Positions 5,313-48,900 are shown, numbered from the stretch's first letter. The stretch: DNA of 64,000 bases from Candidatus Zixiibacteriota bacterium (GCA_022571845.1 JACZXB010000005.1:83888-147887), one strand, 5' to 3'. Program-made: numbers and translations. Notes: a model not told the origin generated them from the sequence alone.

Positions 5313-5365
5313 ACTTTCTTGCTTTCGAGCTGTTTTGGGGATAGTTTGCAAACCTATTAAATGAT

Positions 5366-5449
5366 GCCGAAGTGGTGAAATTGGTATACGCGCTGCGTTC
5401 AGGGCGCAGTGTTCGCAAGGACATGGGGGTTCGAGTCCCCCCTTCGGCA
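5366..5449 (+). tRNA. tRNA-Leu (anticodon CAG), class II with long variable arm, no encoded CCA
   Basis: Cloverleaf read by eye: acceptor GCCGAAG/CTTCGGC; anticodon stem CTGCG/CGCAG with loop TTCAGGG; variable arm TGTTCGCAAGGACAT; T-arm GGGGG-TTCGAGT-CCCCC; discriminator A. Confidence 0.9.
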
Positions 5450-5459
5450 TTAGATTATT
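5436..5459. repeat. attL-type direct repeat (last 14 nt of tRNA-Leu plus 10 nt downstream)
   Basis: TCCCCCCTTCGGCATTAGATTATT is identical 24/24 to 30300-30323. Confidence 0.85.
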
Positions 5460-5558: not shown

Positions 5559-6665
5559 ATGGGAATTGTTTATAAGAGAGGAAAGAATTGGTACATCGAT
5601 GTAATGTCGAAGGGAAGACGAATACGCAAACGCGTCGGTCCGTCGAAGAGAGTAGCCGAGCTTGCTCTCAAGGATGCCGAAGTCAAGATCGCGCGTGACC
5701 GATTTGGATTCAGCAAGAACGATATTACTCTTGATAAGATGTTCGAGCTATTTCTTGAATACTCGAAAACAAGCCATCGCCCTAAGACAACGGAACGATA
5801 TGGTAATGTCATTGACAACTTTCAAGGCTTTCTGCTTAGCGTAAAAAATGTATCGTACTTATCAGAAATAACAGTGCAGTTAATGGATCAGTACAAAGGC
5901 TATCGTAAGACGTCCAACGGAAATGGAGCTTCAGATCATGTTAAGGGAATGGTTGTAACAAATGGAACTAACGGTAAGGCGGCCAAAGCAAGAACGATTA
6001 ATTTTGAACTTGATACTCTTCGCTTGATTTTCAATCTGGCTATCAAGTGGAGCTATCTGACCGACAACCCTGTGAAGGGTGTAACAAGGCTGAAAGAGGA
6101 CGATTCTGGTACGCCAAGGTTCTTGACCAAAGCTGAGTGCAAACGATTTCTTGACGCCTGCCCGAAGTATCTTCAACCGATCTATTTCACTTTCCTGAAC
6201 ACAGGGATGAGAAAAGCTGAATTGGAATACCTGACCTGGGCAGATGTAGACTTCGACAGAAAAGTCATTCATGTTAGGGCAAAAGAAAGCTGGAATCCAA
6301 AGACAGGCGAACGCCAGATACCGATGAACAAAGAATTAGTCAAAGTCCTGACCGACCTCAAAAAGAGTGAAGGGGAAGTTAAGAGTAAAGATTACGTCTT
6401 CGAAATCACCCATTATTCAAATTCACATAACATGCTTCGCAATGAATTGATCAAAATCGCCAAAGCTGCTGAAATCGAAAACCTGACCAAGGTACATACT
6501 CTCCGTCATACTTTTGCCAGCCACTTAGTGATGAGTGGAGTGGACCTGCCAACTGTTTCTAAACTAATGGGACATACTGATATTGAAACAACTATGATCT
6601 ATGCACATCTGGCACCAGAACATCTGGCCGATGCGGTAAGTAAACTATCATTTTTAGAACCCTAA
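5559..6665 (+). CDS. int: Tyrosine recombinase / phage-type integrase
   Basis: 368 aa. The C-terminal catalytic region HTLRHTFASHLVMSGVDLPTVSKLMGHTDIETTMIYAHL carries the HxxR...Y signature. The gene sits directly next to the tRNA gene and the att repeat. Confidence 0.9.
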   Translation: MGIVYKRGKNWYIDVMSKGRRIRKRVGPSKRVAELALKDAEVKIARDRFGFSKNDITLDKMFELFLEYSKTSHRPKTTERYGNVIDNFQGFLLSVKNVSYLSEITVQLMDQYKGYRKTSNGNGASDHVKGMVVTNGTNGKAAKARTINFELDTLRLIFNLAIKWSYLTDNPVKGVTRLKEDDSGTPRFLTKAECKRFLDACPKYLQPIYFTFLNTGMRKAELEYLTWADVDFDRKVIHVRAKESWNPKTGERQIPMNKELVKVLTDLKKSEGEVKSKDYVFEITHYSNSHNMLRNELIKIAKAAEIENLTKVHTLRHTFASHLVMSGVDLPTVSKLMGHTDIETTMIYAHLAPEHLADAVSKLSFLEP

Positions 6666-8055: not shown

Positions 8056-9398
8056 AACGATTCTCCTTGAAATGAATACGGACAGCTAAATCCTTAGTTT
8101 TATTGATCTGCTTACCGTTGTTCTCACCTTCCTTATTTATTTCACAGAATCAATTAAATAGACGAAAATCCTTTTACAAATTTTTTTTGTATATTATCTT
8201 GATTTATTTTTTATTCTGTTGTGCCGCAAGCTTTTGCGGTGTCGCACTTTACAAAAGTAAAGTATGGTTTTTGGAAACTGGATAGACGTATCCATTCGCT
8301 ACGATTTGTAACGTTATGTAATTAAACGGGATATACTGGTCTAACTTGTCATTTACAAATAAACAGCAAACATCTCAACAAATTAAATTCATAACACAAA
8401 TGGAGGAAAGCACTTCGGTGAAAATCCTAAACGCCAGAACAAACAATGCCAATTATTGAATTTCTTAGACTAAATAAAACTAAGAACCAAATTCTGGACT
8501 CATCCAGAGAGAGAACAAGAAGATAGTAGCTTGGCGCAGTGTGCTAACAACAAATAATAGTAAGAAAAAATTGATGTGTGACATTCCAAATCAGACGTCA
8601 ATGTGAAATAACTATCTTGAGAGTAATTTGGTCTTCCCCCGTAATGCCATGTTATTCATTGAGTTAGCATGTCCAGGCTTGACAATGCGACAATTTATGA
8701 TTATATTATAATATAGATAGGTGGGGATAACGAAATGAGCCTGATTATTCTCAAAAAGAAGTCGAATCACCCGTTTTTTAGTCTAAAAACACCCCAAACA
8801 GTGGCGAAATTATACATTCAAACATATTCTTAAATTCTTTCTCTGCAAAGCGTTACGTGGACTATAAAGGCCAAATGACAGCCTATGCCTTGTCTCGTTT
8901 CGTCTCCTCAAGGACTCCGACCACCGTAATACATCTATAATAGAGAGAGTATCCCGCCTACTTAATCATCTTTCGACTTAACAAATTGTCTTAATTTGTT
9001 ATCTGAATAGAGTTATGTGACAATTTGGCTGACAAAGTGCAACGAATGTTGCAAATTTGCACCCCACCTGCCCCCCAGCTGTTACAGTGACCATCGCTAT
9101 GCTGTATATGAAGGGAAAGTATCCCATTCTATTTTTGTGTATGTATAGATATTTTCTGGCAAAATTTCAGAAATACCTAATCCCGCTTTTTCGTTGCGCA
9201 TCAGCAACTTACAGTACATATTAGGACTAATTGCATTCTCGGTTGCCGAAAACAGAGCATAAAAGCAAGGGGAAATAAATAATTAGCGACTCAAAGGATA
9301 AGAAGTTTCTTCCAGAATTCGAATTTCGTCCCGGTGACTTTCCTAAGTCGACTGATTTTGAGCCAATCGGGCTGATATTAGGGAATGGTTCTCCCGCT

Positions 9399-12300
9399 TT
9401 GGAAGTTCTTGTCTATTATACCGCAAAAAGGCCAAGAGCGGATGCGTTAAAGAAAGTCTGGAATGAGCGGCAAGGCGGCCGTGGAGTTCCTTTACTTGTA
9501 GTAGCGCTGCAAGAAAGTCTTTGCCATTTCTGCGGGCACACCGAGAAATTAGCAAATACAGCACATACTGATCTGCCTATCGAAAATATAGAACTGCTCT
9601 GCAGGGCGGCCTTACAACTTCCGAATCACCATTCTGTTGACAGATTCCTTCGTGAACACATTCGTGAATCAGATTCTCCAATCTTTGGCATTATTAACCA
9701 CGGATTACTAGCAACTTATGTAATACAACGAGGCAAAGAAGAAGTAGGTGAATCTGACTGGTCGACCGCATCTCGAAACGTCACAGAATTCTTTTCTAAG
9801 AAGAAACTATTTGATTCTACTGATCATCGCAAACTCCTAAACAATTTGGGATATACAATAGAATCGCTAAAGGGGCCTGCATATATTTTGACTTCTGATG
9901 ATTCACACTTGGCATTGGCTATATTGTTGGACCAAAACGAGTCTGCAGAACTGCCGTCCGGACGATTTGGGAATCAAACACCTATTTCCTCTGCATTGCA
10001 AATGGCTCAGACACACAATCTCGATTGGGTGATAGTTTGTCGGGGAAGTGAACTTCGCCTCTACCCCACACGAACCGGTGTTGGAGTTGGACAACGGGGA
10101 TTAACAGATACTTACCTTAGCCTTGATATCAATCTACTACCAGAGTCACGCCTTCCGTTTCTATGGCTGACAATGTCGGCAGAGGCATTGCGTCAAGATG
10201 GCTTTATATCAGAACTTCGTGCAAAATCTCACAGATTCGCCACCAACATAGGAAAGAGATTACGCGAACGTATTTACATCACTGTAATTCCAAAACTGGC
10301 GATGGCCATTGTCAAGGCACGTGGTTTGAAGAAACCAAGCACAGAAGACCTTGAACTAACCTATCAGATGGCGATGTTGGTTCTCTTTAGATTGTTGTTC
10401 ATTGCTTATGCTGAAGACCACGACCTGCTTCCGTACAGGTCAAACCCCGCCTATAAGGCTCGATCGCTCACACAAAAAGCGCGCGAACTCATTGAAGTTA
10501 TGCAGAAGAAGAGAGAGTTCGATACCGGCACCTCACATTGGGAAGAAGTCAATGGTCTTTGGGACGCCGTAAGAGCTGGTCATAAGGAGTGGGAAGTACC
10601 ACCATACGATGGCGGTTTGTTTGAAGAGGACAAGGAGAAACATCCTGCTGGTTATGAGCTTTCCGAGATTAAGCTTTCAAACAGGGACTTCGGTGTTGTC
10701 CTGACAAACGTACTTCTTGATCAAGATACACCTGAAGGATTAGGGCCGGTGGATTTCCGGTCTCTTGGGGTGAGAGAATTTGGGACCATCTATGAAGGTC
10801 TTTTAGAAAATGAATTATCTGTTGCCGAACAAAATCTGACAACTGATAAAAAAGGGCATTACAAACCAACTGATGATAAAAAGAAAATAGAAGTTCGTAA
10901 GAATGAAATATATCTTCACAACCGTTCCGGTGCGCGCAAATCGTCCGGCTCATATTACACTAAGAGTTTTGCCGTCGAGCATCTCTTAGACCATTCCCTG
11001 GAACCTGCTCTCGATGAACATTTGAAAAAAGTGGAAGCCTTAGCCAAGACAGACTCTACTAATGCAGGAAAGCAGTTGTTTGAATTCTATGTGGCGGATA
11101 TTGCCATGGGCTCCGGGCATTTTCTTATTGCCGCCATAGATAGAATAGAAAAGCGATTTATCACCTTTCTTGGACAAACACCACTAAAGTCGGTTGACGA
11201 TGAACTTGAAAAACTACGGGTTGCGGCCAAAAAAACGCTCGGTGAGGCGGCTGATGAACGACAGCTTGAGAAAAACCAGTTACTGCGTCGCTTGATAGCT
11301 CGTCGATGTATCTATGGTGTTGATTTGAATCCGCTGGCAGTAGAGCTGGCGAGACTTTCGGTGTGGATTCATACTTTTGTCCCTGGGCTGCCGCTTTCTT
11401 TTCTTGATCACAACTTGGTGTGTGGAAATTCGCTGGTTGGTATTGGTACGTTTGATGAGGCTATAGATGAATTGACAGAAGCTGGCGCCAATTATGGACT
11501 GTTTGATGACCCTGCAAAAAAGCTGTTGGAAGCTGCCTCAGATGACATTCGGACATTACGAGAGCTGCCAGACGCTGACATGAAGGACATCGATAGAGCT
11601 AAAGCAGCTATACGGCACATGGAGAAAGCATTGTCGGGTCTTAAAGCTATTTTTGACATATTGTCTGCCGCAAGGATTGATGACGAAATAGTAGAAAAAA
11701 TGGGGGCGGGTGCCGCCGGTCTTCTAACAAATTTGAAACAGCTTGATACTCTTTTTGGAAGTGCACTTCACAAAAAGGCGCGAGAAGTTCTTTCAGCTAT
11801 TCGACCCTTCCACTTTCCCATAGCATTTCCAGAAATATTCCTACGTCAAACTCCCGGATTCGACGTAATCATCGGAAATCCGCCGTGGGAGAAAACACAA
11901 GTGGAAGAAAACGAGTTTTGGTGTAGAAACTATCCTGGCTTCAAGGGATTACAGCAATCAGATCGAGAGAAACTTATGCTGATTTATAAAAAAGAAAGGC
12001 GCGATCTTGTAGAGAGACTTGAAGCCGAGCGCAAGGAAGCTGATTCAATTCGTCTAACGCTGATGACGGGACCTTTCCCTGGGATGGGCAGTGGCCACCC
12101 TGATCTCTACAAGGCATTTTGTTGGCGCTTCTGGCATTTGATAAGAAAAGAGTATGGATACATTGGAGTAGTTCTACCACGTTCTGCATGGGCCGGACAG
12201 GGTTTAGAAATATTTAGAAAAAAAATTATAAAAGACTGTCGAACTGTTTTCTTGACCACTTTAATAAATATGAATCATTGGGTTTTTCCAGAGGTTCATG

Positions 12301-13376
12301 GGCAATACGGAATAGTGCTAACGATTTTAGCGAGTTCACCAAGGAAAACCCAGCACGCTAATATTTCGCTTTTTGGCCCCTTTAGGAATTTTGAGAACTT
12401 CAAGAAGGGTGTTAAGAAAAAGCCTGTGACACTTAGCGGAAAAGATGTTCTTGACTGGACTGATTCAGCCCTACTTCCTTTACTTTCATCAAAGGAATCG
12501 GTCGAGGTTTTCCAGCAATTGAGGAAGGCACCACGTCTCGATTCTCAACTTGATGATTGGAGATGCAGGCCAGTTCAAGGAGATTTGAATGCAACAACGG
12601 GTAAGAAATATATGACATTTAGTGAAGTACGACTAAAACATTATTGGCCAGTTTATAAAGGCGAATCATTCGGAATCTGGAATCCCGATACAAGCATTTA
12701 CTACGCGTCGGTGGAGCCTAAAAAAATTGTTAAACACTTGCAGGAAAAGCGTAAAAGAGCTCATGGAAATTCCCGCTCCGCCTTTAGCGAGTTTTCGGAA
12801 AAGATGATAGAGGATGTAAGTACACTGACCTGTCTTTATCAACGAATTGCTTTTCGGGATGTTACGAACTCCATTGACAGTCGAACTGTTATTGCTTCCT
12901 TGGTTCCGCCAAATTTAGTCTTGACACACAAAGCACCTTACTTCTTATGGCCAAGAGGTGATGAATTGGATCAAGCTTTTCTTTTGGGAGTGTTGTGCTC
13001 ATTCCCACTCGACTGGTACGCAAGGCGTTTTGTGCAAACCACTCTAAATTTTCAAATTCTGTCTCCTTTTCCCGTTCCACATCCTGATAGGGCAAATACA
13101 CTTTGGAAACGGGTTGTAGCACTCGCTGGTCGCCTTGCTTGTCCTGACAAAAGATTTGCGGAATTCGCTAAGAAGGTTGGAGTTAAGTGCGGACCACTTA
13201 AAGCTGATGAAAAAGAAGATATGATACACGAATTGGACGCAGTGGTAGCACACTTATACGGACTAAATGAAAAACAAATAGTTCACATTTTTGAAACATT
13301 CCGCGTCGGCTACACTTACGAAGTTCGCATAAAAGAAACACTAAAATATTTCAAAGAGTGGAAAAAGAAGTTGTGA
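9399..13376 (+). CDS. Large Eco57I/PglX/DrmMI-like N6-adenine DNA methyltransferase with ~560-aa N-terminal extension and C-terminal specificity region
   Basis: Motif I is DIAMGSGHFLIAA (MGSGHFL = 11106-11126). The family-typical helical insert is CIYGVDLNPLAVELARLSVWIH...CGNSLVG. Motif IV is IIGNPPWEK (NPPW = 11877-11888). The start is uncertain: TTG 9399 is listed, but the frame is open back to 9279. Confidence 0.85.
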   Translation: MEVLVYYTAKRPRADALKKVWNERQGGRGVPLLVVALQESLCHFCGHTEKLANTAHTDLPIENIELLCRAALQLPNHHSVDRFLREHIRESDSPIFGIINHGLLATYVIQRGKEEVGESDWSTASRNVTEFFSKKKLFDSTDHRKLLNNLGYTIESLKGPAYILTSDDSHLALAILLDQNESAELPSGRFGNQTPISSALQMAQTHNLDWVIVCRGSELRLYPTRTGVGVGQRGLTDTYLSLDINLLPESRLPFLWLTMSAEALRQDGFISELRAKSHRFATNIGKRLRERIYITVIPKLAMAIVKARGLKKPSTEDLELTYQMAMLVLFRLLFIAYAEDHDLLPYRSNPAYKARSLTQKARELIEVMQKKREFDTGTSHWEEVNGLWDAVRAGHKEWEVPPYDGGLFEEDKEKHPAGYELSEIKLSNRDFGVVLTNVLLDQDTPEGLGPVDFRSLGVREFGTIYEGLLENELSVAEQNLTTDKKGHYKPTDDKKKIEVRKNEIYLHNRSGARKSSGSYYTKSFAVEHLLDHSLEPALDEHLKKVEALAKTDSTNAGKQLFEFYVADIAMGSGHFLIAAIDRIEKRFITFLGQTPLKSVDDELEKLRVAAKKTLGEAADERQLEKNQLLRRLIARRCIYGVDLNPLAVELARLSVWIHTFVPGLPLSFLDHNLVCGNSLVGIGTFDEAIDELTEAGANYGLFDDPAKKLLEAASDDIRTLRELPDADMKDIDRAKAAIRHMEKALSGLKAIFDILSAARIDDEIVEKMGAGAAGLLTNLKQLDTLFGSALHKKAREVLSAIRPFHFPIAFPEIFLRQTPGFDVIIGNPPWEKTQVEENEFWCRNYPGFKGLQQSDREKLMLIYKKERRDLVERLEAERKEADSIRLTLMTGPFPGMGSGHPDLYKAFCWRFWHLIRKEYGYIGVVLPRSAWAGQGLEIFRKKIIKDCRTVFLTTLINMNHWVFPEVHGQYGIVLTILASSPRKTQHANISLFGPFRNFENFKKGVKKKPVTLSGKDVLDWTDSALLPLLSSKESVEVFQQLRKAPRLDSQLDDWRCRPVQGDLNATTGKKYMTFSEVRLKHYWPVYKGESFGIWNPDTSIYYASVEPKKIVKHLQEKRKRAHGNSRSAFSEFSEKMIEDVSTLTCLYQRIAFRDVTNSIDSRTVIASLVPPNLVLTHKAPYFLWPRGDELDQAFLLGVLCSFPLDWYARRFVQTTLNFQILSPFPVPHPDRANTLWKRVVALAGRLACPDKRFAEFAKKVGVKCGPLKADEKEDMIHELDAVVAHLYGLNEKQIVHIFETFRVGYTYEVRIKETLKYFKEWKKKL

Positions 13377-13945
13377 TTGTTCGAAGTGACAGAGTAACTC
13401 CCGATAAACTTAAGTGGTACGACCGGTTTGGGCCTTATGCGTGGATATGTTATGAGGGGAAAGTCTTGAGAATGGATTATGATATACAGACCATCAATGA
13501 CGCGCATCGGCTACTAATTAGAAAAGAACATCACAATTTGATTAAGCTTCAGAAAGAGCCATTTACTTATGTAATGACCGGCTGTAAAGAGGACTGGATT
13601 AAGTATGGTCTTCAACCTGTCTATTTCTTGGTGGAAGATGTTAAAAAAGACAATAGGTGGTATCAACCAATTCGACAAATCGACCAGGCTTCTCAAAAAG
13701 AGCCATATTGGATTACTGAAGATATTGAGGAAGGAATAGAGCAATGTAGGCAAATAGTGGGATGTCCGAATTGCTGCCCCGATGAGAGACCATGGCCCCA
13801 AGCGGCTATTGCAGTACCGGTAAAAGGAATTGCAGAGCATTTTCTGGAAGCAGGGTGGGATAAGCTAATAGTTGATGAAGTTATATTGGACAAAGAAGTT
13901 GATTGGTTTAAGCAGGGCAGATTGCCCTTGGATAAAGAGAAATGA
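13358..13945 (+). CDS. Hypothetical 195-aa protein with Cys cluster (CRQIVGCPNCCP), coupled to the methyltransferase
   Basis: Its GTG start overlaps the MTase stop by 19 nt. No recognisable family. Confidence 0.45.
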   Translation: MEKEVVIVRSDRVTPDKLKWYDRFGPYAWICYEGKVLRMDYDIQTINDAHRLLIRKEHHNLIKLQKEPFTYVMTGCKEDWIKYGLQPVYFLVEDVKKDNRWYQPIRQIDQASQKEPYWITEDIEEGIEQCRQIVGCPNCCPDERPWPQAAIAVPVKGIAEHFLEAGWDKLIVDEVILDKEVDWFKQGRLPLDKEK

Positions 13946-14046
13946 GATATTGGTATCCAACTTGATATTGCATTTTGATATATCAAGATTAGATGGGGAC
14001 AACTTGATATTCCAAATTGGAACATCAAAATGTGAATTGAACAAAA

Positions 14047-17000
14047 ATGAGCAAACCGGAATTTGTTGACAACCGCGACGGCAACACGCTTGCCGAAGCT
14101 CTTCGTACCCATTTAGATTGGTTAGGTGAGACTTATGCCCAGCCGGTCGAGCTGTCTATCGCAACGGGATATTTCAATCCAGGCGGTTTTGCACAAATAG
14201 CAAATCATTTAGAGCGGATTTCTAAAGTGCGCTTATTGATTGGCGCCGAGCCGCTATCACCGCCTGCTATTCCCCGCCGAGACCCGATGAAAGACCCCCG
14301 GGGAGAAAAATTCGATCGCAAAATACTGGCTGACAAACTTCTCGAAGAAGAAAATGGAATTCGCAAAGACCGTGATTTGCTAGAGTTTGAACCAGAAGTA
14401 GATGCAACAGTTCGCCGATTATTGGAGTTTTTGAAATCTGGAAAAGTTGAAGTGCGTCGTTATGAGAGAGGTTTTCTTCATGGAAAAGCGTTTATCTTTT
14501 CTGATGATGAAGGGGTGTTGGCCGGTTCATCAAACTTTACGGCGGCTGGTCTTTTGTCAAATCTTGAACTAAATCTGGGCCACTATCAACCGGGTTTAGT
14601 CAAACGGGTAAAAGACTGGTTCGGTGATCTGTGGGTAGAATCAGTCCCGTATGACTTGGTCAGCATTTATGAGGCGCGCTATAAAGAATATGACCCGTAT
14701 CTAATTTATCTTCGAGTGCTATGGGAGCTTTATAAAGATGAAATGGAAGAAGAACGTCAGCCCAGCGGACGAATACCGCTAACTACTTTTCAAAATGACG
14801 GAATTAGCAGAGCTCAAAGAATTCTTGATAAATATGATGGCGTGATTATTGCCGACGGTGTTGGACTTGGTAAGACGTTTATTGCTGGTGAAATGATGCG
14901 AATAGTGCAGGACAACAGACAGAGGGTGTTACTGATTTCACCGGCAGCACTAAGGGACGGAACATGGAATAGATTTCAAATGAGAACACAACTGCGGTTC
15001 GAAAATCTATCATATGAGCAACTAGTTTTGGGTTCGGAGAGTTTTAAGCCAGATGAATACGAAATGGTAGTTATTGATGAAGCACAGGCATTTCGGAATC
15101 CGAATACTCAACGGGCACAGGCGCTCCGTAAATTATTGCAAGGCAAGCCTCCTAAGAAGTTAGTTCTAATGACAGCCACTCCAGTAAATAACTCGTTATG
15201 GGACTTGTATTATTTGATGACGTATTTCCTCAAACATGACGCGGTGTATGCGGACAAAGGAATCCGTTCGCTAAAACAAAGATTTACAGAAGCACAGAAG
15301 ATTGACCCATTTGATTTACGGCCGGATGTCCTTTTTGATGTTCTAGATCCGATAACAGTTCGGCGAACGCGTCAGTTTGTCCAAAAGTGGTATCCACACG
15401 AAACAATCACTTTACCAGACGGCACTCAGATTCCTGTACGTTTTCCTACCCCCCATGTTGGAAAAGTAGAATATAATCTTGAGAAAGTCTTACCCGAGAA
15501 CTTCTTTGAAGACTTTGCCGAAGCACTTGCACCGGAAAAAGGCGCTCCGGCTTTAACATTAGCACGATATCAACCATCCGCATATTTGAAAAAGGAAGAA
15601 ACGTTCGAGAGCGAAGTGGCATTAGTTGGACTGTTACGATCTGCACTACTCAAAAGATTCGAGTCTTCGGTTTATGCATTTGGTCGAACATCTGCAAAAA
15701 TGGCCAGAGCTAACGAAATGTTCTTAGCTGCTTTGGAAGAGGGATTTGTACCATCACCGCAAGCAATGGAAGAATTGCTTGAAACAGATTCTGATGAAGC
15801 GATAGAAGAACTGTTAATTGAATCAGGTTCAGAACCTGTTAAACTATATGAAGTTGATAGGTTGAAGGCTGATGTTACAAAAGATCGTGATTTATTACAG
15901 TCATACTTCAAAATTGCTGAGTCAGTCGTTCCTGAAAAGTCTCCCAAACTCAAACAGTTGGCTGAAACAATTGTAAAGATAATAAAACAGGCTGAAAGTG
16001 AAGCCGGAGGTAGTGAATATCCACGGGACAAAATTAAGGTCTTGATCTTTTCCTATTACGGGGATACAGTGAGATGGATTTACAATTACCTCTCAAAAAT
16101 GACCGAAACTGACCTACGCTTGGCACCATATCGAGGAAGAGTTGCAGCTATTGTAGGTGATAAAGCTCTGCAGGGAGGCTCTCGCGAATCAACAGTTTTT
16201 GGTTTTGCACCGGATACTACTGAGGCACCGCAACGATTTGCAGAAGATAAATTTGACATTCTTATTACAACTGATGTTTTGGCCGAAGGTATGAACCTGC
16301 AACAATGTCGTCACATTATAAACTTTGATTTGCCTTGGAACCCAATGCGACTGGTGCAACGTCACGGACGAATTGATCGCATTGGTAGCAAACACAAAAA
16401 TGTCTTTATAAAATGCTTCTTCCCCGACGTTAGATTGGATGACTTGCTTGCTTTAGAAATTCGCATTCGCAGCAAATTGGCCCGAGCAGCTGCCTCAATA
16501 GGAGTTGAATCGGAAGTAATCCCTGGTGGCACGATTGAAGAAGTAATCTTTACTGAAACGAAAGAACAAATTGAGGCATTGAAGAGTGGCGATGCTAATT
16601 TGTTCGAGCGTGGAGAAGAAATAGAGGGCGCTCATTCTGGCGAAGAATATCGTCAAGAATTACGAAAAGGGCTGGAAGATTTCGGTGATAATATTGTGAA
16701 TTTGCCCTGGGGAGTGGGGTCAGGCTTCAAGTACGGAATTCAACCTGGATGGTTCTTTTGTGCTTGTGTAGGCGATAAAATATTTTTGCGCTTCGTTCCG
16801 GAAGATAAACAAAATCCGATAGTGACTGACACTTTGGGATGTCTAAGGCACGTTGCTTGTGAGCGTACTACTCCTCGACACTTACCCGGAGTTAGTATCA
16901 AGAGTGCATACGAGGCCTGGAACAAAGCCCGTACTCATATCTTTCAAGAGTGGACAATGGCAACTGACCCCAAAAATTTACAACCTAAAATCCGGCCACT

Positions 17001-17286
17001 CTTTAGAAAAATGGCAGAACATATTCGTCAAAATCCGCCGGAAAACATAAATCAAAATCAAATAGAAGACACCGTTGATGCAATTTTGGCTCCCTGGGGA
17101 ATTCGTTATGAAAGAGAATTGCGACCTATAATGCAGGACGAGGCCAGTTCGGATGAAGAAAGGTCAAAGCAGATAATCGATAAGGTGGCCGAACTGGGGA
17201 TGTCCCCTTACGTTAAGCCGGAGCCCTTACCACTTATTGATGCAGATGAAGTGAAGTTGATTTGTTGGATGGGGATATTAAGCTGA
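14047..17286 (+). CDS. Phospholipase-D-family nuclease domain fused to an SNF2-family helicase
   Basis: HKD motif HGKAFIFSDDEGVLAGSSNFT (14479-14541). SNF2 motifs are ADGVGLGKT, VIDEAQAFRN (DEAQ = 15076-15087) and LMTATPVNNS. The C-terminal helicase motifs are TDVLAEGMNLQQC and LVQRHGRIDRIGS. Confidence 0.85.
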   Translation: MSKPEFVDNRDGNTLAEALRTHLDWLGETYAQPVELSIATGYFNPGGFAQIANHLERISKVRLLIGAEPLSPPAIPRRDPMKDPRGEKFDRKILADKLLEEENGIRKDRDLLEFEPEVDATVRRLLEFLKSGKVEVRRYERGFLHGKAFIFSDDEGVLAGSSNFTAAGLLSNLELNLGHYQPGLVKRVKDWFGDLWVESVPYDLVSIYEARYKEYDPYLIYLRVLWELYKDEMEEERQPSGRIPLTTFQNDGISRAQRILDKYDGVIIADGVGLGKTFIAGEMMRIVQDNRQRVLLISPAALRDGTWNRFQMRTQLRFENLSYEQLVLGSESFKPDEYEMVVIDEAQAFRNPNTQRAQALRKLLQGKPPKKLVLMTATPVNNSLWDLYYLMTYFLKHDAVYADKGIRSLKQRFTEAQKIDPFDLRPDVLFDVLDPITVRRTRQFVQKWYPHETITLPDGTQIPVRFPTPHVGKVEYNLEKVLPENFFEDFAEALAPEKGAPALTLARYQPSAYLKKEETFESEVALVGLLRSALLKRFESSVYAFGRTSAKMARANEMFLAALEEGFVPSPQAMEELLETDSDEAIEELLIESGSEPVKLYEVDRLKADVTKDRDLLQSYFKIAESVVPEKSPKLKQLAETIVKIIKQAESEAGGSEYPRDKIKVLIFSYYGDTVRWIYNYLSKMTETDLRLAPYRGRVAAIVGDKALQGGSRESTVFGFAPDTTEAPQRFAEDKFDILITTDVLAEGMNLQQCRHIINFDLPWNPMRLVQRHGRIDRIGSKHKNVFIKCFFPDVRLDDLLALEIRIRSKLARAAASIGVESEVIPGGTIEEVIFTETKEQIEALKSGDANLFERGEEIEGAHSGEEYRQELRKGLEDFGDNIVNLPWGVGSGFKYGIQPGWFFCACVGDKIFLRFVPEDKQNPIVTDTLGCLRHVACERTTPRHLPGVSIKSAYEAWNKARTHIFQEWTMATDPKNLQPKIRPLFRKMAEHIRQNPPENINQNQIEDTVDAILAPWGIRYERELRPIMQDEASSDEERSKQIIDKVAELGMSPYVKPEPLPLIDADEVKLICWMGILS

Positions 17287-17482
17287 AGTCGTTAGCGAGT
17301 GCTGCACCGAGTTGCCTTAGGGGCAATCAGGATACAGTGAATAAGGCTCTTAATCGCAAGAGTGTTGAAAGATTTGCAGCTAACTCTTCGAATTGGATGG
17401 AAAATAACCCAAATTCAATATTGACCTAATGTCTGGCGCATATTAACTTTAGGGCAATAATCCTATCAAAAAGAGGTAGAAA

Positions 17483-18208
17483 ATTAGGCAGCGTCTTTTA
17501 GTAAGTGTTAGAGCGAAAAACGATGCTCTGGAAGCAATCAAAGGAGGAGCCCAGATTATTGATGCCGAATATCCCGGGTCGGCCCTTGGCACTTGCTGGC
17601 CTGCGAATATTAGGGCTATTCGTAACCATACTCCAGCCGAGCTTCAGGTGAGTACGAATATTGGCGAAAAACAATTTGTCTGGAGTACTGCCGGTCAGGC
17701 GGCTGTTGGTGTAGCGTTTGCTGGAGCAAATATTATCAAGGTCGGTCTGGCTGAACTTAATAAGACGAAAGCTTTAAGAGTCATGAAAAATGTTACGCAC
17801 CAAGTCAATTACTTTTTCAAGGATAAACCGCCTGCTATGATTGCAACTTTCTTTGCTGATGAAGATCTGCGTAAATTCTTTGACCCAGTAGTAAACGGAG
17901 CAGAGGTTTCATCAAAGTCAAAAGCTAACGGGGTGCTCATAGATACATTCGATAAGAATTGTGGAAAAAGCCTTTTGGACTGGCTAAGTTTGAAAGAGAT
18001 CAAATCTTTTGTCAAAAACTGCCATACGCAAAATCAAGAAGCTTGGCTTGCGGGATCAATAACAAAAGCACAGATGCCAGGGTTGTGGAAAACAGGGGTA
18101 GATGTTATTTGTGTTAGAGGGGCCGCTTGTGAAAGTGGAATGGGTCGACAAGCGAAAGTAATCGCACGAAAAGTTAAAGCACTTATGAACATATTATCAG
18201 GAAATTAG
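17483..18208 (+). CDS. MfnB / DUF556-like (4-HFC-P synthase family) TIM-barrel protein, divergent, probable non-canonical ATT start
   Basis: The frame opens at 17480. The upstream part reads RLLVSVRAKNDALEAIKGGAQIIDAEYPGSALG, followed by VSTNIG, IIKVGL, VMKNVT, LIDTFDK, LAGSI and VRGAAC, which match my memory of the family. The first canonical start (GTG 17648) would delete the conserved N-terminus. AAGAGG (17471-17476) lies 6 nt before ATT 17483. Confidence 0.6.
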   Translation: MRQRLLVSVRAKNDALEAIKGGAQIIDAEYPGSALGTCWPANIRAIRNHTPAELQVSTNIGEKQFVWSTAGQAAVGVAFAGANIIKVGLAELNKTKALRVMKNVTHQVNYFFKDKPPAMIATFFADEDLRKFFDPVVNGAEVSSKSKANGVLIDTFDKNCGKSLLDWLSLKEIKSFVKNCHTQNQEAWLAGSITKAQMPGLWKTGVDVICVRGAACESGMGRQAKVIARKVKALMNILSGN

Positions 18209-18219
18209 GATAATTAGTG

Positions 18220-19542
18220 ATGCCCCTATACTTATCTAGAGTAAAAATTTCCAATATCAGGTGCTTCGAAAAACTCAATATTAATTTTCGCAAAAAAGAT
18301 GACCTTATACTCTGGACGACTTTGCTCGGAGACAATGCGACTGGCAAAACAACCTTATTGAAATGCATTGCGTTGGGTTTATGTGACGAATCCAGTGCAG
18401 CCGGATTGTTAAAGGAGTCTGAAGAAGGATACATTAGGAAAGATGAGGAATGGGCGACAATTTCAATTGAATTATGCTACAGCAAAGGTAGCAACAAGAC
18501 ATATCGGATAAATACGAGGATTGAGAAAATTCGAATGAAAGGGAAGGAAAAACAAACTTTCGAGAAACTTAGACAACGTACAATCCCTTTTAAAAATTTT
18601 CCATGGCATGACATTTTTGTATGCGCATATGGAATAGGTCGTGGAATATCGGGCACTGGAGATATTTCAGGTTATTACCCCATTAGCGCTGTCTATAATC
18701 TTTTCAACTATTTTGAGGGACTTCAGAACCCCGAATTAATTCTTCGACGCATAGATAAGAAAACAACCGTAAAGAGAATTCTTAAGGAAGTTAGTGAAAA
18801 AGCAATGCGAGCAGCTGGTATTGATCCAATCTCGATGGCTGGGGCAAAGGAAGGACTTAAAGTTAGCGGACAATGGGAAAGTGAGTTTCCGCTTAGAGAT
18901 GTTGCAGATGGAGTTAGGTCTTTTTTACAGTGGATTATTGATTTTATCGGTTGGGCACTTAGCTATGATAAGAAAATAGATAGACTCAAAATGATTCATG
19001 GAATTGTAATTGTAGATGCGTTAGAAGAGCACCTACACCCGGTTTGGCAACGATATGTTGTCAGTGATCTTAAGAAGGCATTTCCAAACGTCCAGTTCGT
19101 GATTTCTTCTCATTCACCACTAGTAGCTGCTGGTTCTTCTGATTTTGAGGATGCATTATTGGTAAATTTAGTACTCGAGCTTGGAAATAAAGTAGTAAGA
19201 AAATACATTAACCTTAAAAGCCTACATAATCTGCGACCTGATCAAATACTAAGGATCGCTTTCGGCCTGCCTGTGATCATTAGTCCCAAATCCCCCGATA
19301 GAATTTCACGTTTCATTGAACTTGCAACTAAAAAGAAGCCTAGCCCGTCTGAAAAGAAACAACTGGCAACGTTGAAGCAGAGTATTAAAAGTACATTTGA
19401 ATTTGAACACACAAATTACGAACAACAAGTGTACAACGCTCTAAACATTGTGCTTAAGAAGATCCTGAAAGAGGAACCATCGGAAATTCACAAATTGATA
19501 GAGCAAAAAACTCTTTATAAGTTATTTAGGGGGGGCGATTAA
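18220..19542 (+). CDS. AAA/ABC-type ATPase, Septu PtuA-like
   Basis: N-terminus LSRVKISNIRCFEKL; Walker A GDNATGKT (18328-18351); Walker B IVIVDALEEHLHP. An HNH gene follows immediately. Confidence 0.65.
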   Translation: MPLYLSRVKISNIRCFEKLNINFRKKDDLILWTTLLGDNATGKTTLLKCIALGLCDESSAAGLLKESEEGYIRKDEEWATISIELCYSKGSNKTYRINTRIEKIRMKGKEKQTFEKLRQRTIPFKNFPWHDIFVCAYGIGRGISGTGDISGYYPISAVYNLFNYFEGLQNPELILRRIDKKTTVKRILKEVSEKAMRAAGIDPISMAGAKEGLKVSGQWESEFPLRDVADGVRSFLQWIIDFIGWALSYDKKIDRLKMIHGIVIVDALEEHLHPVWQRYVVSDLKKAFPNVQFVISSHSPLVAAGSSDFEDALLVNLVLELGNKVVRKYINLKSLHNLRPDQILRIAFGLPVIISPKSPDRISRFIELATKKKPSPSEKKQLATLKQSIKSTFEFEHTNYEQQVYNALNIVLKKILKEEPSEIHKLIEQKTLYKLFRGGD

Positions 19543-19544
19543 TA

Positions 19545-20321
19545 ATGCGGAAAATAGTATTTGATGAACCAACTCATGCAAAGTGGATAAAATGGCGTAA
19601 AGATTGTGAAACGGCTTCCAGGAAAATAGTTGATGAGTTTAAACGAAGTAAAAAGTTTGAAATCAATAACAAACTATACAAGAGACAAAAATCTGAATAC
19701 TATAAGGAAGATGGAGCATTTTTCGGAAAATGTGCATATTGTGAAGCTAAACTAAAATCCAAACCAAGTTTAGACCACTACCGTCCAAAGAAGGCCGTCG
19801 CCGATGAAAACGGGAATCAATTAAAACACCCGGGGTATTATTGGTTAGTATATTCCTGGGATAATTTACTGCCTTCCTGCGCATCATGTAACGAGGGTGC
19901 AAAGTTTAAGGGTGTAAGTGTCGGAAAACAGGACAAATTTCCCGTTAGAAACATTCGCGCGAGAAGACCAGGAGATGAGGTTAAAGAAAAGCCACTGATA
20001 CTGAATCCGACCATTGATGACCCTGCAAAGCATCTTGAATGGAGTTCAGACAAAGGGAAAATGATGATTGGAAAAACTAAAGAAGGTAAAATTACTATTA
20101 AAATTTTATGGGGTGAATCACAAGACATAATAAAGGAAGAATGGGAAACGGCTTACAATGATGTGCTTGCAAGGTTATTTGGTTTTCTTTTTTCAGGAAA
20201 GGCAAACTGGCGACAAGAAAGACAAAAGTTTACTGATGGAATAATAAGTGGTAAAGCTGAATATTCGTTTGTTCGAAGAGCGGCATTGAGGGACGTGAAA
20301 GATTTCAGTATTGAACCATGA
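19545..20321 (+). CDS. HNH endonuclease, Septu PtuB-like
   Basis: CAYCE...LDHYRPK...WDNLLPSCASCN is an HNH Cys/His pattern. The gene starts 2 nt after the ATPase stop. Confidence 0.65.
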   Translation: MRKIVFDEPTHAKWIKWRKDCETASRKIVDEFKRSKKFEINNKLYKRQKSEYYKEDGAFFGKCAYCEAKLKSKPSLDHYRPKKAVADENGNQLKHPGYYWLVYSWDNLLPSCASCNEGAKFKGVSVGKQDKFPVRNIRARRPGDEVKEKPLILNPTIDDPAKHLEWSSDKGKMMIGKTKEGKITIKILWGESQDIIKEEWETAYNDVLARLFGFLFSGKANWRQERQKFTDGIISGKAEYSFVRRAALRDVKDFSIEP

Positions 20322-45900: not shown

Positions 45901-48900
45901 TTATTTCAGTAAAGTCATTTTCTTAGTTTCAATCTGCCTATTATCAGCAGTCAATCTGTATAGATAAATTCCAGAGGCCGCTGTTTCGCCGCTCAATGTC
46001 CGGCCGTCCCAAATCACCTTAGTTTCGCCGGCATCGGCCATGCCGTCAAAAGGAATTGCCACTACCTGACCTAAGAGATTGAATATTTCAATCCTGGCCT
46101 GGCCTGCAGCCGGCAGGCTGAAGTTTATGGTAGTAGATGGGTTAAACGGATTGGGGTAGTTCTGAGACAGAGAGTAACTGCCCGGAAGATTATCATCAGG
46201 GCTGCCGCCTGTGGTCAGGGCTGCTACTTCAATCAAAGCGCCCTGATCAGTCCAGCTGAATTCTTCGCGGGTTCTCTCGCCATCTATTTCAAGGAAGAAA
46301 ACATCACCTTTACTGATTCCGGTCACCTGCTCACCAAAGAGGTCGGCGTAGACCGGCATAAATCCAAACTGGCCGTGCTCGGAAAGCTCAAAATGACCGA
46401 TTTTTATGCCATCGGCTGAACGAGCGATAACAATTGCTCCGGCCGATACGGTCAGATTATCTAAAGTAAGATTGTAAGAGTAGAGGTTGACCCAGCTTCT
46501 GGTCGGCTCAACAACTTTCTCTACAGTCTTGGCTGAGGCCAAGAGGTTTTCAATATCGTATTCAGGTGCCGCCAGGCCTCCTGCTGCCGGATAAGTTAGC
46601 ACGTCGCTAGTGCTGACTTTGAGCCAGTAGCCGAGACATGTCATCATTTCGGTCAGAGTATTAAAGACAGGATCTACTCCTGGTTTATAGATAAACGGAG
46701 CTTCATCGTAAGTATAGGCTATCTCAAGGCTGCCAAGTGAAGCCAAAGCTGAGTCTGTAGGCAGCGTATCGTTTGGCAGATAGCTGACCAGATTCCAGCC
46801 TGAGTTAAGCAGGATTGGGGTATCCTGATCCACCGGTACACCACTTATTTCTAATGTAAAGGGAATATAACAAACCTGTGCGGGACCAGAAGTATCTATC
46901 TTAATCCAATAACCGCTTAGGTGATCAACGGTATGAAGTGTGTTAAAAATATCCATACCCGGTACATAAGTCAATCCACCCTGTTCAAAGCCAAGTACAA
47001 CCCCTATACAGCCAAGCGAAGCAAGAACATCTTCAATATCATCCGAATCAGTATTCAAATTCCAGCTGACCAAATTCCAGCCAGGATTCAAAGTACATTC
47101 AAGCGTCAGCCGTTCGCCTCCGGCCAGACAGACACGGACAGTGTCATATTCAGCTGGATAGATGGTATTGCCATCGGCTAAGGCTGCGACGCCATTTATA
47201 AAGAATCTGATATTATCACCGGTAGTGGCACCTTCGTCTTCGCTAGAGCCGGTAGAATCTCTATAGACCGGCATAAATCTGTAGACGCCGGGGTCTGTTA
47301 CAAACTGACGACCGCAAATGTTGCCCTGCGGGTCCTGAGCTTCTACAATGGCACCAACCGGCAGAGGTGAGCCGAAAAGTGTGTTGACATCGCAGAAATA
47401 ATCAACCCACTGGTCAACCGGCGTAATCGCCTCGACCGGGTAGAGAATTATCATGACTCCGATTTTACCAGAGTTGACGGTAGTATCGTTGGGATAGCAG
47501 GCGCCGTTAAAAGTAGTGGAATCCGAACTGCCTTTATAGGCATAAAGGTCAAAACTGCCCAGGAAAAAATCAGTAAAAGCAAAAGCTCCGTTGCCGTTGG
47601 TGGTGGTAGTCATGGTAGGACCGCTGCTCGGATAATCCGGCCAGAGTTCAACCGTTGCACCGGCTATACCAACCGTATCGGGGCTTATAATATATCCACA
47701 GACAAAAGATTCGGTTATATCGACTATGATATTTCCACCGCCACCGGGGATGACCGGGAGGATATTCTGTTGCCCTTCACCACCACCGCAATCTCTCAGG
47801 AAAAAAGTTGAGGGATGAGCAGTATCAGCTTTGGCAAATGATATCACAGGAGTTACGCCATAAACTCCGAGTGGCGTAAAGCAGTCGATAGAAAAGAAAA
47901 GATTTCCAAGTGCATAATTTGCCGGGGCTATCGGCGGGCCATCGCTTACCTGGGCGCTTATGAAAACGTTGTTATTGATATTATCGATGTCTACATTTTT
48001 GATAGCTAGGCCACTTAATGCTTCGTCAAATATGAACGAATCAAGGACTATTGAACTACCACCATCCCAGTCTATGGGAATGATTATACCATAGACATCG
48101 CAACTGTTTGTAATTGTAAGCGGAACAGCTATCTGTTGTCCCGGGACTGCCGGAACCGTAGCAACTACCAGAGTGTCACCTTCGCTGCCCGGATCTTTGT
48201 CTTCAACTGTTATGGTAAATGATTCACTGACTGTATCTTTTCCGTCGGAAGCGTGGGCAGTAAGGGGATAGACTCCGGCCTGGTTGAAGTTTGGCGTAAA
48301 TCTGAACTGACCGTTGCCATTGCCGCTATCTATAAAAGTCATATTGTCTTCCAACGTTGCGACTGACAGATAAAGAGTATCGCCGTCGGCATCTGAGGCA
48401 CTAACGCCAATTATTAAAGTTTCACCTTCAAAAATTGTTGTATCTGCGATCGCATCCAGTACCGGCGGAGTGTTTGGCTTTTCAAGAATTTCCAGAGAGA
48501 CAATTATAATCACCGGAGAGTTAAAAGCCGTATCAGCAGAGACAACGATGGTGTCAGCGTAGGTGCCGGGAGGTAATGAATCGAGATTTGTAGTATCAGC
48601 AACTACCAAGAAATTATCTGGTGCTGTGCCGGATGATTTGCTGGTGTTAAACCAGAAGCTGCTTTCTGATACTGTATAAGGCCAAATTCCCCCGGCGCTG
48701 TCTGATACTGAGACAGAAACCGGATCAAAAGCCGCACCGCCATCGGTCACTGTAAGATTGATGCTGGTCGGGCTGACTTCCAAAAGGATCGGCGCTGCCG
48801 TGATTTCCAGAATTACTACAGCGAAAATTGGGGAATTGTTGGCGTCGCCGGATGAAATTGTTATGTCACTGTAGTAGACACCCACTGGCAAAGCTGTCAA

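Follow-up and report, generated by a model that had tools for sequence, protein, structure and literature searches.

Which biological system, if any, is formed by a giant adenine methylase, a small cysteine-containing protein and a nuclease-helicase fusion that are encoded by three adjacent genes in a Candidatus Zixiibacteriota bacterium? The genes lie at positions 9279-17286 of a DNA stretch of 64,000 nucleotides (nt), hereafter the window (GCA_022571845.1 JACZXB010000005.1:83888-147887). An original prediction made from this sequence had interpreted them as a three-gene module that combines DNA modification with a translocating nuclease, similar to a stripped-down DISARM system, and had been unable to place it in any named class. 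Here, we report a comparative analysis of the locus, which shows that the conserved unit consists of two genes, not three: the methylase and the fusion of a phospholipase D (PLD) nuclease with an SNF2 helicase. The finding is more general than that prediction held, but the unit is a gene pair.

A methylase gene and a PLD-SNF2 gene form the conserved unit

All coordinates given below were counted in the window, unless assigned to another locus, and genes were identified by calling of open reading frames (ORFs) combined with direct reading of the translations. The three ORFs of the locus are co-directional, on the plus strand, and encode a giant gamma-class N6-adenine DNA methyltransferase (9279..13376; 1365 amino acids counted from 9279; Pfam Eco57I), a small protein with a CPxC motif (13373..13945; 190 amino acids) and, after a spacer of 101 nt, the PLD(HKD)-SNF2 fusion (14047..17286; 1079 amino acids; Pfam PLDc_2, SNF2-rel_dom and Helicase_C). 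These ORFs, along with all the motifs originally quoted for them, are indeed present in the translations.

For the survey of related loci, one genome per species was scanned with an alignment of the PLD-SNF2 family, and each locus (denoted here by a number with the prefix L) was checked by tblastn. A full-length ortholog of the methylase is encoded directly upstream, on the same strand, in all 21 loci that contain a full-length PLD-SNF2 ortholog and upstream sequence. The paired loci come from Longimicrobiales, Acidimicrobiales, Vicinamibacteria, Bryobacterales, Gammaproteobacteria, Chloroflexota/Dehalococcoidia, Actinomycetes and a Nitrosopumilaceae archaeon. Sampling from the methylase side gave the same association, with PLD-SNF2 located downstream in three of three loci, and 30 of the top 120 methylase clusters have a longest contig that is exactly equal in size to that of a top-120 PLD-SNF2 cluster. 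In L004, L017, L019, L021, L023 and L040, the methylase and PLD-SNF2 genes overlap by 1-8 nt and are translationally coupled.

The pair is also found on plasmids. In plasmid pHLAC01 of Halorubrum lacusprofundi, the upstream protein aligns over its full length with the methylase, at 42% identity; in a Rhodococcus plasmid, the gene order is the same, the upstream protein being judged by size and position only. The RefSeq names of the plasmid-borne genes of the pair are 'hypothetical protein' and 'helicase-related protein'. A megablast search of plasmids with the DNA of the module itself yielded no match. Apart from occasional recombinases, no third gene is conserved in the flanks of 22 orthologous loci; elsewhere, the pair is neighbored by genes for transposases, recombinases, DndB, Mrr_N and SLFN-type helicases. 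Co-occurrence, which had been suggested as a check on the proposed module, is thus strict for the methylase and PLD-SNF2, whereas the trio is found only within a narrow clade.

The small CPxC gene occupies a variable slot

Between the two core genes lies a variable slot. Nine loci (L004, L005, L014, L016, L017, L019, L021, L023 and L040) leave it empty, and others contain genes there that are unrelated to the small gene of the window. These include an ImmA/IrrE peptidase (Peptidase_M78) together with a DUF4411 protein in L010 (8282-9992) and L018 (8210-9998), a DUF4760 protein in L015, a Uma2 nuclease in L020, a DUF5131 protein in L022, Mrr_N accompanied by a 70-amino-acid ORF in L086, four small genes without a known family in L089, and a 142-amino-acid gene, likewise without a known family, in L090. 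With the slot empty or differently occupied in most orthologous loci, the three-gene unit of the original prediction is not supported. In Hma, a related operon is reported to contain a hotspot for the insertion of defense genes (PMC11232893). As a separate observation, the ImmA/IrrE and DUF4411 pair was inserted into the slot independently in two distant bacteria (L010 and L018), and it could be a regulator or a toxin-like cargo module that targets this site.

In the window, the slot contains the gene of the small protein, whose cysteine motif, as read from the translation, is CRQIVGCPNCCP. The protein has no match in Pfam, PADLOC, NCBIfam or PHROG, and its family is tiny, with 3 homologs detected among 5.8 billion proteins and 5 clusters in a set of 1.84 billion representatives. 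The cysteine cluster to which attention had originally been drawn reduces, within this family, to the CPxC dyad (C131/C134), the only invariant feature. With the exception of the distant member P0251, which sits in another gene context, the family members are encoded between, after or before the methylase and PLD-SNF2 genes, as far as the contigs reach; this neighborhood was seen in the window and in L001, L002, L003, L092 and L095. The trio is confined to the window's own subclade, and the small gene is a lineage-specific passenger or cargo. Because this recombination-prone slot is empty or filled with unrelated cargo in other lineages, the CPxC protein is an accessory rather than a core subunit, and it is possibly a regulator, a sensor or a second-line factor.

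An iron-sulfur (Fe-S) protein was considered as well, given a phmmer match to the Fe-S subunit of succinate dehydrogenase (E 2.8e-5, over a CxxxxxCxxxCP-like pattern), and was rejected: C130 and C76 are not conserved, and a profile of the 7-sequence family drops the match to E 0.5. The AF2 model of the small protein is unusable, with a predicted local distance difference test score (pLDDT) of 35.

The PLD-SNF2 protein combines a single-HKD nuclease with an intact motor

The PLD-SNF2 protein belongs to a large and tightly conserved family: 3118 homologs were found at E<=1e-20, and over 100 clusters align along the full length at 56-97% identity. Its translation contains HGK...GSSN (the HKD motif), GLGKT, DEAQ, TATP and QRHGRIDR. 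The N-terminal nuclease domain (14152..14634, plus strand; residues 36-196, PLDc_2) carries one HKD motif, with HKD...GSSN at nt 14479-14535, and H145, K147, G160, S161, S162 and N163 are invariant in the family alignment; these intact, invariant residues argue for cleavage. In PLD nucleases, such as Nuc, BfiI and SauUSI, one active site needs two HKD motifs, so that two copies of PLD-SNF2 would have to meet to form an active site. The structure of SauUSI (7clg) matches the fusion by sequence over residues 127-295, across the junction of the PLD domain and the motor, and SauUSI provides a precedent for a nuclease composed of a PLD domain and a superfamily 2 (SF2) motor.

The SNF2 ATPase core (14779..16446, plus strand) contains GLGKT, DEAQ, TATP and QRHGRIDR, and the family alignment shows no variation in motifs I, II, III and VI. 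The motor belongs to the PF00176 family, with the ResIII model reaching just 22.9 bits against a cut-off of 22.5, and the nearest solved relatives in a profile search of the Protein Data Bank (PDB) are RapA, the Sulfolobus SNF2 protein 1z63 and ISWI. The motor is followed by a strongly conserved C-terminal domain of about 280 amino acids (16447..17283, plus strand), with invariant C905, C932, C938 and H992 and without a Pfam or PDB match, which we consider a candidate metal-binding or methylase-docking domain. No recognizable modified-base reader domain was detected in PLD-SNF2 by profile scans with Pfam, PADLOC and NCBIfam. The best PADLOC profile for this protein is C3a139, 'HKD+Snf2', which represents a candidate cluster of type III CRISPR accessories (PMC6546367). 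C3a139 was rejected as the system to which PLD-SNF2 belongs, being a candidate cluster only and not a defense system (PMC6546367).

The methylase is type IIG-like, with a probably inactive nuclease fold

The methylase, for which 1277 homologs were found at E<=1e-30, matches Pfam Eco57I with 68 bits and, over its full length, the PADLOC profile PDLC03620 REase_MTase_IIG (958 bits, E 1.7e-288; residues 57-1362 aligned with 57-1373 of the 1378 positions in the profile). Both by this family-profile match and by the presence of the methylase and a specificity region in one chain, it has the organization of a type IIG protein. The catalytic core (11097..11888, plus strand) extends from motif I, DIAMGSGHFL (11097-11126), to motif IV, NPPW (11877-11888), both invariant among 33 homologs, and TIGR02987 covers residues 858-1270.

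The N-terminal region (9279..10260, plus strand) appears to adopt restriction-endonuclease-like folds and is probably catalytically dead. The AF2 model of the first 560 residues is confident (pLDDT 89, predicted template modeling score 0.83), and a Foldseek search of the PDB with the N-terminus found nothing significant (best E 0.046), the weak top matches being mostly PD-(D/E)xK folds, namely, Hjc, RecU, the SPARDA nuclease domain, BpuSI and HsdR. The original prediction could see no intact PD-(D/E)xK triad in the methylase, and the alignment of 17 orthologs bears this out, with no D/E/K triad conserved in the N-terminus. The strand on which we would expect ExK carries an invariant A212 and a nearly invariant A214. 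E221 is found in all the closer homologs and is lost in L019, L020, L022 and L028. Because no triad is conserved despite the endonuclease-like fold, the N-terminus is probably a degenerate endonuclease that has no catalytic residues. Sequence searches of the PDB with the methylase, either as a single sequence or as a profile, gave no match, so that no solved type IIG structure is detectable.

Mosaic divergence points to specificity swapping

DNA and protein identity profiles of the window against its closest relatives, L001, L002 and L003, divide the locus into three segments. The N-terminal half of the methylase (9100-11400) is 85-99% identical at the DNA level and PLD-SNF2 (14100-17700) is 90-97% identical, whereas between them lies a hypervariable cassette (about 11400..14050, plus strand) with an identity of 47-70%, which comprises the C-terminal (specificity) half of the methylase, the small gene and the spacer. 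The same mosaic pattern is seen in the profiles of protein identity. The small protein of L001 shows 64% identity, with 97% for the neighboring PLD-SNF2. For the small gene of L003, identity is 92%, compared with just 51-65% for the adjoining half of the methylase, and therefore the breakpoints differ between the relatives.

Cassette exchange of this type is typical of the specificity domains of restriction-modification (RM) systems. The divergent C-terminal half of the methylase has the signature of specificity swapping, suggesting that this half carries target recognition. The C-terminal module, of about 270 amino acids, is present in two tandem copies in L011 (6065-7616) and in a separate frame or ORF in L006, L008, L009 and L018; these variants may be specificity shufflons or cases of phase variation, or frameshift errors in long-read assemblies of metagenome-assembled genomes. 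Programmed inversions have been described in Cj0031-like type IIG genes that adjoin PLD+SNF genes (Milman et al. 2023, PMC9881135).

Gene starts

The starts of two of the three genes had to be revised. For the small gene, an overlap of 19 nt with the methylase gene and a product of 195 amino acids had been given, and both values are right if translation starts at GTG 13358 (ORF 13358..13945, plus strand). All homologs, however, start with MI(V/A)RSD, which matches GTG 13373. On that evidence, this GTG is most likely the start, and the gene would overlap the methylase stop codon by 4 nt, as GTGA, and encode 190 amino acids.

The methylase had been described as starting the module at 9279 and as having 1325 amino acids. 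The frame is open from 9279, which is the better start, and the product counted from there has 1365 amino acids; 1325 is the length from the first canonical start, TTG 9399 (9399..13376), where the NCBI protein (P0124, 1325 amino acids) also begins. Because residues 8-40 are kept in orthologs down to 42% identity (F10, L11, R17, G31, L32, G35 and G37) and are confidently modeled (pLDDT about 89), the methylase almost certainly begins near 9279 and not at TTG 9399. No ATG, GTG or TTG occurs in the frame upstream of TTG 9399, where TAA at 9276-9278 is followed by ATA ATT. These codons, at 9279 and 9282, are preceded by AAGGGG, which includes a Shine-Dalgarno-like GGGG run, and both ATA-ATT and GGGG are kept in L001 and L002. 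Initiation probably occurs at one of these non-canonical codons.

Comparison with known systems

The pair follows the same logic as Type III systems (Mod + Res, for example, EcoP15I) and Type ISP systems (LlaGI/LlaBIII), in which a specificity methylase is combined with a nuclease that is attached to an ATP-driven SF2 motor, and shares with them the fast divergence of specificity modules. It further resembles Type III in the organization of two genes in one operon. Unlike in either type, the motor is of the SNF2 family, not of the Res or ISP type, and in place of PD-(D/E)xK or Mrr it carries, at the N-terminus, a single-HKD PLD domain as the nuclease. Rather than a beta-class Mod, the pair has a gamma-class, Eco57I-like methylase with motif I before NPPW. 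The combination that defines Type III, in which a Res-type helicase that ends in a PD-(D/E)xK nuclease is joined by a beta-class Mod, is accordingly missing. In contrast to Type ISP, the functions are split over two ORFs instead of being united in one polypeptide. With the type IIG enzymes of the Eco57I/MmeI/BpuSI class, the methylase shares the large polypeptide, the N-terminal endonuclease-like region, the gamma-class N6-adenine methylase and the C-terminal specificity region, but it lacks conserved nuclease residues and, in the loci sampled, its gene is always paired with PLD-SNF2.

Class 1 DISARM (DrmA, DrmB, DrmC, DrmD and DrmMI) similarly brings together an adenine methylase, an SNF2 helicase and a PLD nuclease in a defense island. 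The PLD and SNF2 parts are fused in one protein here, whereas DrmC is a stand-alone PLD protein. No match to the defining components, the DrmA helicase and DrmB (DUF1998), was found among the window neighbors and large ORFs that were scanned, a subset of all ORFs. The NCBIfam DrmD model aligns only with residues 518-874 of PLD-SNF2 (151.8 bits, cut-off 610), the DrmC model NF038319 reaches 17.9 bits (cut-off 133), and the PADLOC DrmMI model matches only the core of the methylase (residues 539-873), with 254 bits versus 958 bits for the type IIG profile. With such partial matches, far below the cut-offs, the label of a stripped-down DISARM is an analogy only. For BREX, the scanned window ORFs contain no match to PglZ or BrxC, and the PglX models reach 18-26 bits with the methylase, against cut-offs of 400-900. 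The misfit with DISARM and BREX that had been pointed out from the window also extends to the orthologous loci, where DrmA, DrmB, PglZ and BrxC are not conserved neighbors.

Hma and the Type-2 BR systems are defined by a DUF499 AAA+ ATPase and DUF3780 (PMC12839542). What they have in common with the locus is an N6-methylase accompanied by an HKD-Swi2/Snf2 effector in which the nuclease is N-terminal. DUF499 and DUF3780 were not found by Pfam scans of the window ORFs or of the slot and flank genes of the related loci scanned, and the PADLOC match to HmaA amounts to 74 bits only. Because no DrmA/DrmB, PglZ/BrxC, DUF499 or DUF3780 was found among the ORFs scanned, the module, as judged from its gene content, is not DISARM, BREX or Hma/BR.

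Two further comparisons concern the PLD-SNF2 partner. The same pairing, with variable specificity, was noted in passing for Cj0031-like type IIG genes and PLD(cd09178)+SNF genes (PMC9881135, Table 3), in a paper that did not describe the two as a system. The Cj0031-like methylases differ in belonging to another family (with a TaqI_C domain and about 1150-1200 amino acids) and in the opposite gene order. Distant PLD-SNF2 proteins, with 26-28% identity to that of the window, have another methylase, of the Eco57I/TaqI_C kind, as their partner; L026 (9968-16803) and L029 (9974-16564) show the reverse gene order, and in L044 (9920-19396) the genes are convergent and flank a NucS_C-like gene. Pairing of PLD-SNF2 with a type IIG-like methylase is therefore a broad theme, of which L026, L029 and L044 are further unnamed variants. 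SauUSI, in turn, resembles the fusion protein in having an N-terminal single-HKD nuclease joined to an ATP-dependent motor, an architecture that implies a need for dimerization in cutting, but it is a modification-dependent type IV enzyme that stands alone, contains a DNA reader of its own and has no methylase as a partner. In the literature searched, in which subscription journals were thinly covered, so that earlier work may exist, we found no named two-gene system of a methylase and PLD-SNF2, in line with the original failure to assign a class.

Genomic context

Upstream of the module, the window contains a tRNA-Leu (CAG) gene (5365-5450, plus strand) and a tyrosine integrase gene (5559-6665, plus strand), followed by three small minus-strand ORFs (to 8055), one of which has a weak PHROG match to single-stranded DNA-binding proteins. 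The tRNA and integrase genes look like the upstream edge of an integrated mobile or defense element; no att-type direct repeat of the 3' end of tRNA-Leu was found within the 64 kb. The next 1.2 kb or so (8056-9278) is AT-rich and has no ORF of more than 60 amino acids, and only its last ~180 bp are kept (about 85%) in L001 and L002. Rfam, promoter and terminator scans of this region and of the spacers detected nothing above chance.

A second defense system lies right beside the module, in the form of a Septu-like pair, PtuA (18217-19542, plus strand; PADLOC 184 bits) and PtuB (19545-20321, plus strand; PADLOC 139 bits). It is located between an mfnB-like gene, for 4-(hydroxymethyl)-2-furancarboxaldehyde phosphate (4-HFC-P) synthase, and an ornithine/diaminopimelate decarboxylase-like gene, and it has the same place in L001 (14614-16663). 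L001 shares its downstream genes with the window but has a serine recombinase upstream. Elsewhere in the window, a minus-strand gene (45901-51504) encodes a protein of 1867 amino acids with BACON repeats, Ig/cadherin-like domains and a C-terminal sorting signal of the type IX secretion system, and FtsH and LepA are encoded as well. Taken together, these genes point to a bacterial host, probably from the FCB group; an archaeal (methanogen) host, which the mfnB-like gene and the GC content had brought to mind, was rejected on their account.

Discussion

The locus is, in our judgment, probably a two-component, ATP-dependent RM defense module of a Type III/ISP-like kind, in which an SNF2 motor and a PLD nuclease would act in trans to the methylase. 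This reading draws on the strict pairing of the two genes, their coupling, the intact motifs, the missing nuclease triad in the methylase, the swapping of specificity and the mobile and defense context, and it supports the originally proposed combination of modification with a translocating nuclease. From these features, we infer a role in defense and a scheme that assigns DNA recognition to the methylase, an interaction to the two proteins and a particular geometry to cleavage. The methylase would mark its own recognition motif on host DNA. On incoming DNA, the same subunit, through its target recognition domain, would bind the unmethylated sites and, once bound, would recruit or license the SNF2 motor; ATP-driven translocation might then bring two single-HKD domains together, and the DNA would be cut. 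HKD endoDNases in ATP-dependent RM-like systems have been discussed previously (PMC12839542).

Several observations weigh against this interpretation. The small protein stays in the operon even at 38-42% identity, so it could be needed in its clade. The view that the methylase has lost its nuclease is built on conservation and on a weak fold search (best E 0.046) rather than on a residue-level superposition, and the best PADLOC profile files the protein as type IIG, that is, as a self-contained restriction enzyme. Furthermore, the SNF2 proteins of BREX and DISARM may exert their effect without any DNA cleavage.

These points correspond, in part, to alternative explanations. If the full-length, 958-bit match to PDLC03620, the endonuclease-like N-terminal fold and the invariance of E221 among the closer homologs are taken at face value, the methylase could be a self-sufficient type IIG enzyme, and PLD-SNF2 a separate defense gene that is merely co-located and encodes, for instance, a modification-dependent type IV nuclease similar to SauUSI, or else a back-up effector; SauUSI, also a PLD-helicase, does act alone. 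We consider this unlikely: co-occurrence in one orientation, with overlaps of 1-8 nt, is strict across many phyla, the D/E/K triad is not conserved family-wide and even E221 is lost in L019, L020, L022 and L028, and PLD-SNF2 is devoid of a recognizable reader of modified bases. An obligate three-component system in the window's clade, with the CPxC protein as an adaptor, a sensor or a metal or redox switch that couples the methylase to PLD-SNF2, likewise has only a modest chance of being correct. It would account for the location of every family member but P0251 between the methylase and PLD-SNF2 where the contig shows the neighbors, for the coupling of the small gene's start to the methylase stop by the GTGA overlap, and for the fast divergence of the small protein (64%) beside a 97% identical PLD-SNF2 in L001, as expected of arms-race interfaces. 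Yet the slot is empty in nine orthologous loci, in which the core proteins are full-length and co-linear with those of the window, and holds unrelated genes in others; the small gene of L003 is 92% identical next to a specificity half at 51-65%, so the two are not co-adapted; and P0251 occurs in another context altogether.

The remaining explanations depart further from a two-gene RM module. A system of the BREX, DISARM or BR type with parts encoded elsewhere (DrmA/DrmB, a DUF499 ATPase or PglZ), or an SNF2-driven remodeling block of phage replication without cutting, would be compatible with the partial matches to the DrmD, DrmMI, BrxHI/II, HmaA and DpdE models and with the use of an HKD-Swi2/Snf2 helicase and an N6-methylase in Type-2 BR (PMC12839542). 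We regard it as very unlikely, given that these matches cover generic cores only and fall far below the cut-offs (DrmD 152/610, PglX 26/400), that the scanned subset of window ORFs has no match to these families, that no flanking gene is conserved in 22 loci, and that the invariance of the HKD catalytic residues favors cleavage. The least probable reading, to which we attach hardly any weight, is that of a pair with no immune role, which could instead act as an epigenetic regulator subject to phase variation or, as a selfish addiction module, stabilize the mobile element on which it resides. The presence of the pair on mobile elements and plasmids and its possibly variable or duplicated specificity modules can be counted in favor, as can the fact that RM systems are able to behave as addiction modules. 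Addiction and defense are, however, compatible in such systems, and the invariant nuclease and motor motifs, together with the neighboring defense genes, fit restriction.

Beyond the proposed RM module as such, a broader generalization is conceivable, and we would give it somewhat less than an even chance. The pair could represent a distinct, very widespread and unnamed class of ATP-dependent RM systems, in which PLD-SNF2 has taken over cleavage from a type IIG-like methylase that lost its own nuclease. The junction of the two genes would be a dedicated docking slot for exchangeable accessories, and the CPxC protein a new, clade-specific regulator or phage sensor.

If the pair is one system, many loci are mis-annotated, and a common restriction architecture is absent from the defense catalogs; judging by the labels of the PADLOC profiles, automated tools would probably call 'RM type IIG' and ignore the partner. 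The variable slot is a natural screen for accessory or back-up defense genes, and the exchange of specificity halves leads us to expect many new m6A motifs. If the proposed reading is true, an SNF2 motor and a PLD nuclease do the job of Res or HsdR, and the pair would offer a minimal, two-protein model of the methylase/SNF2/PLD logic that is common to DISARM and the BREX-related systems.

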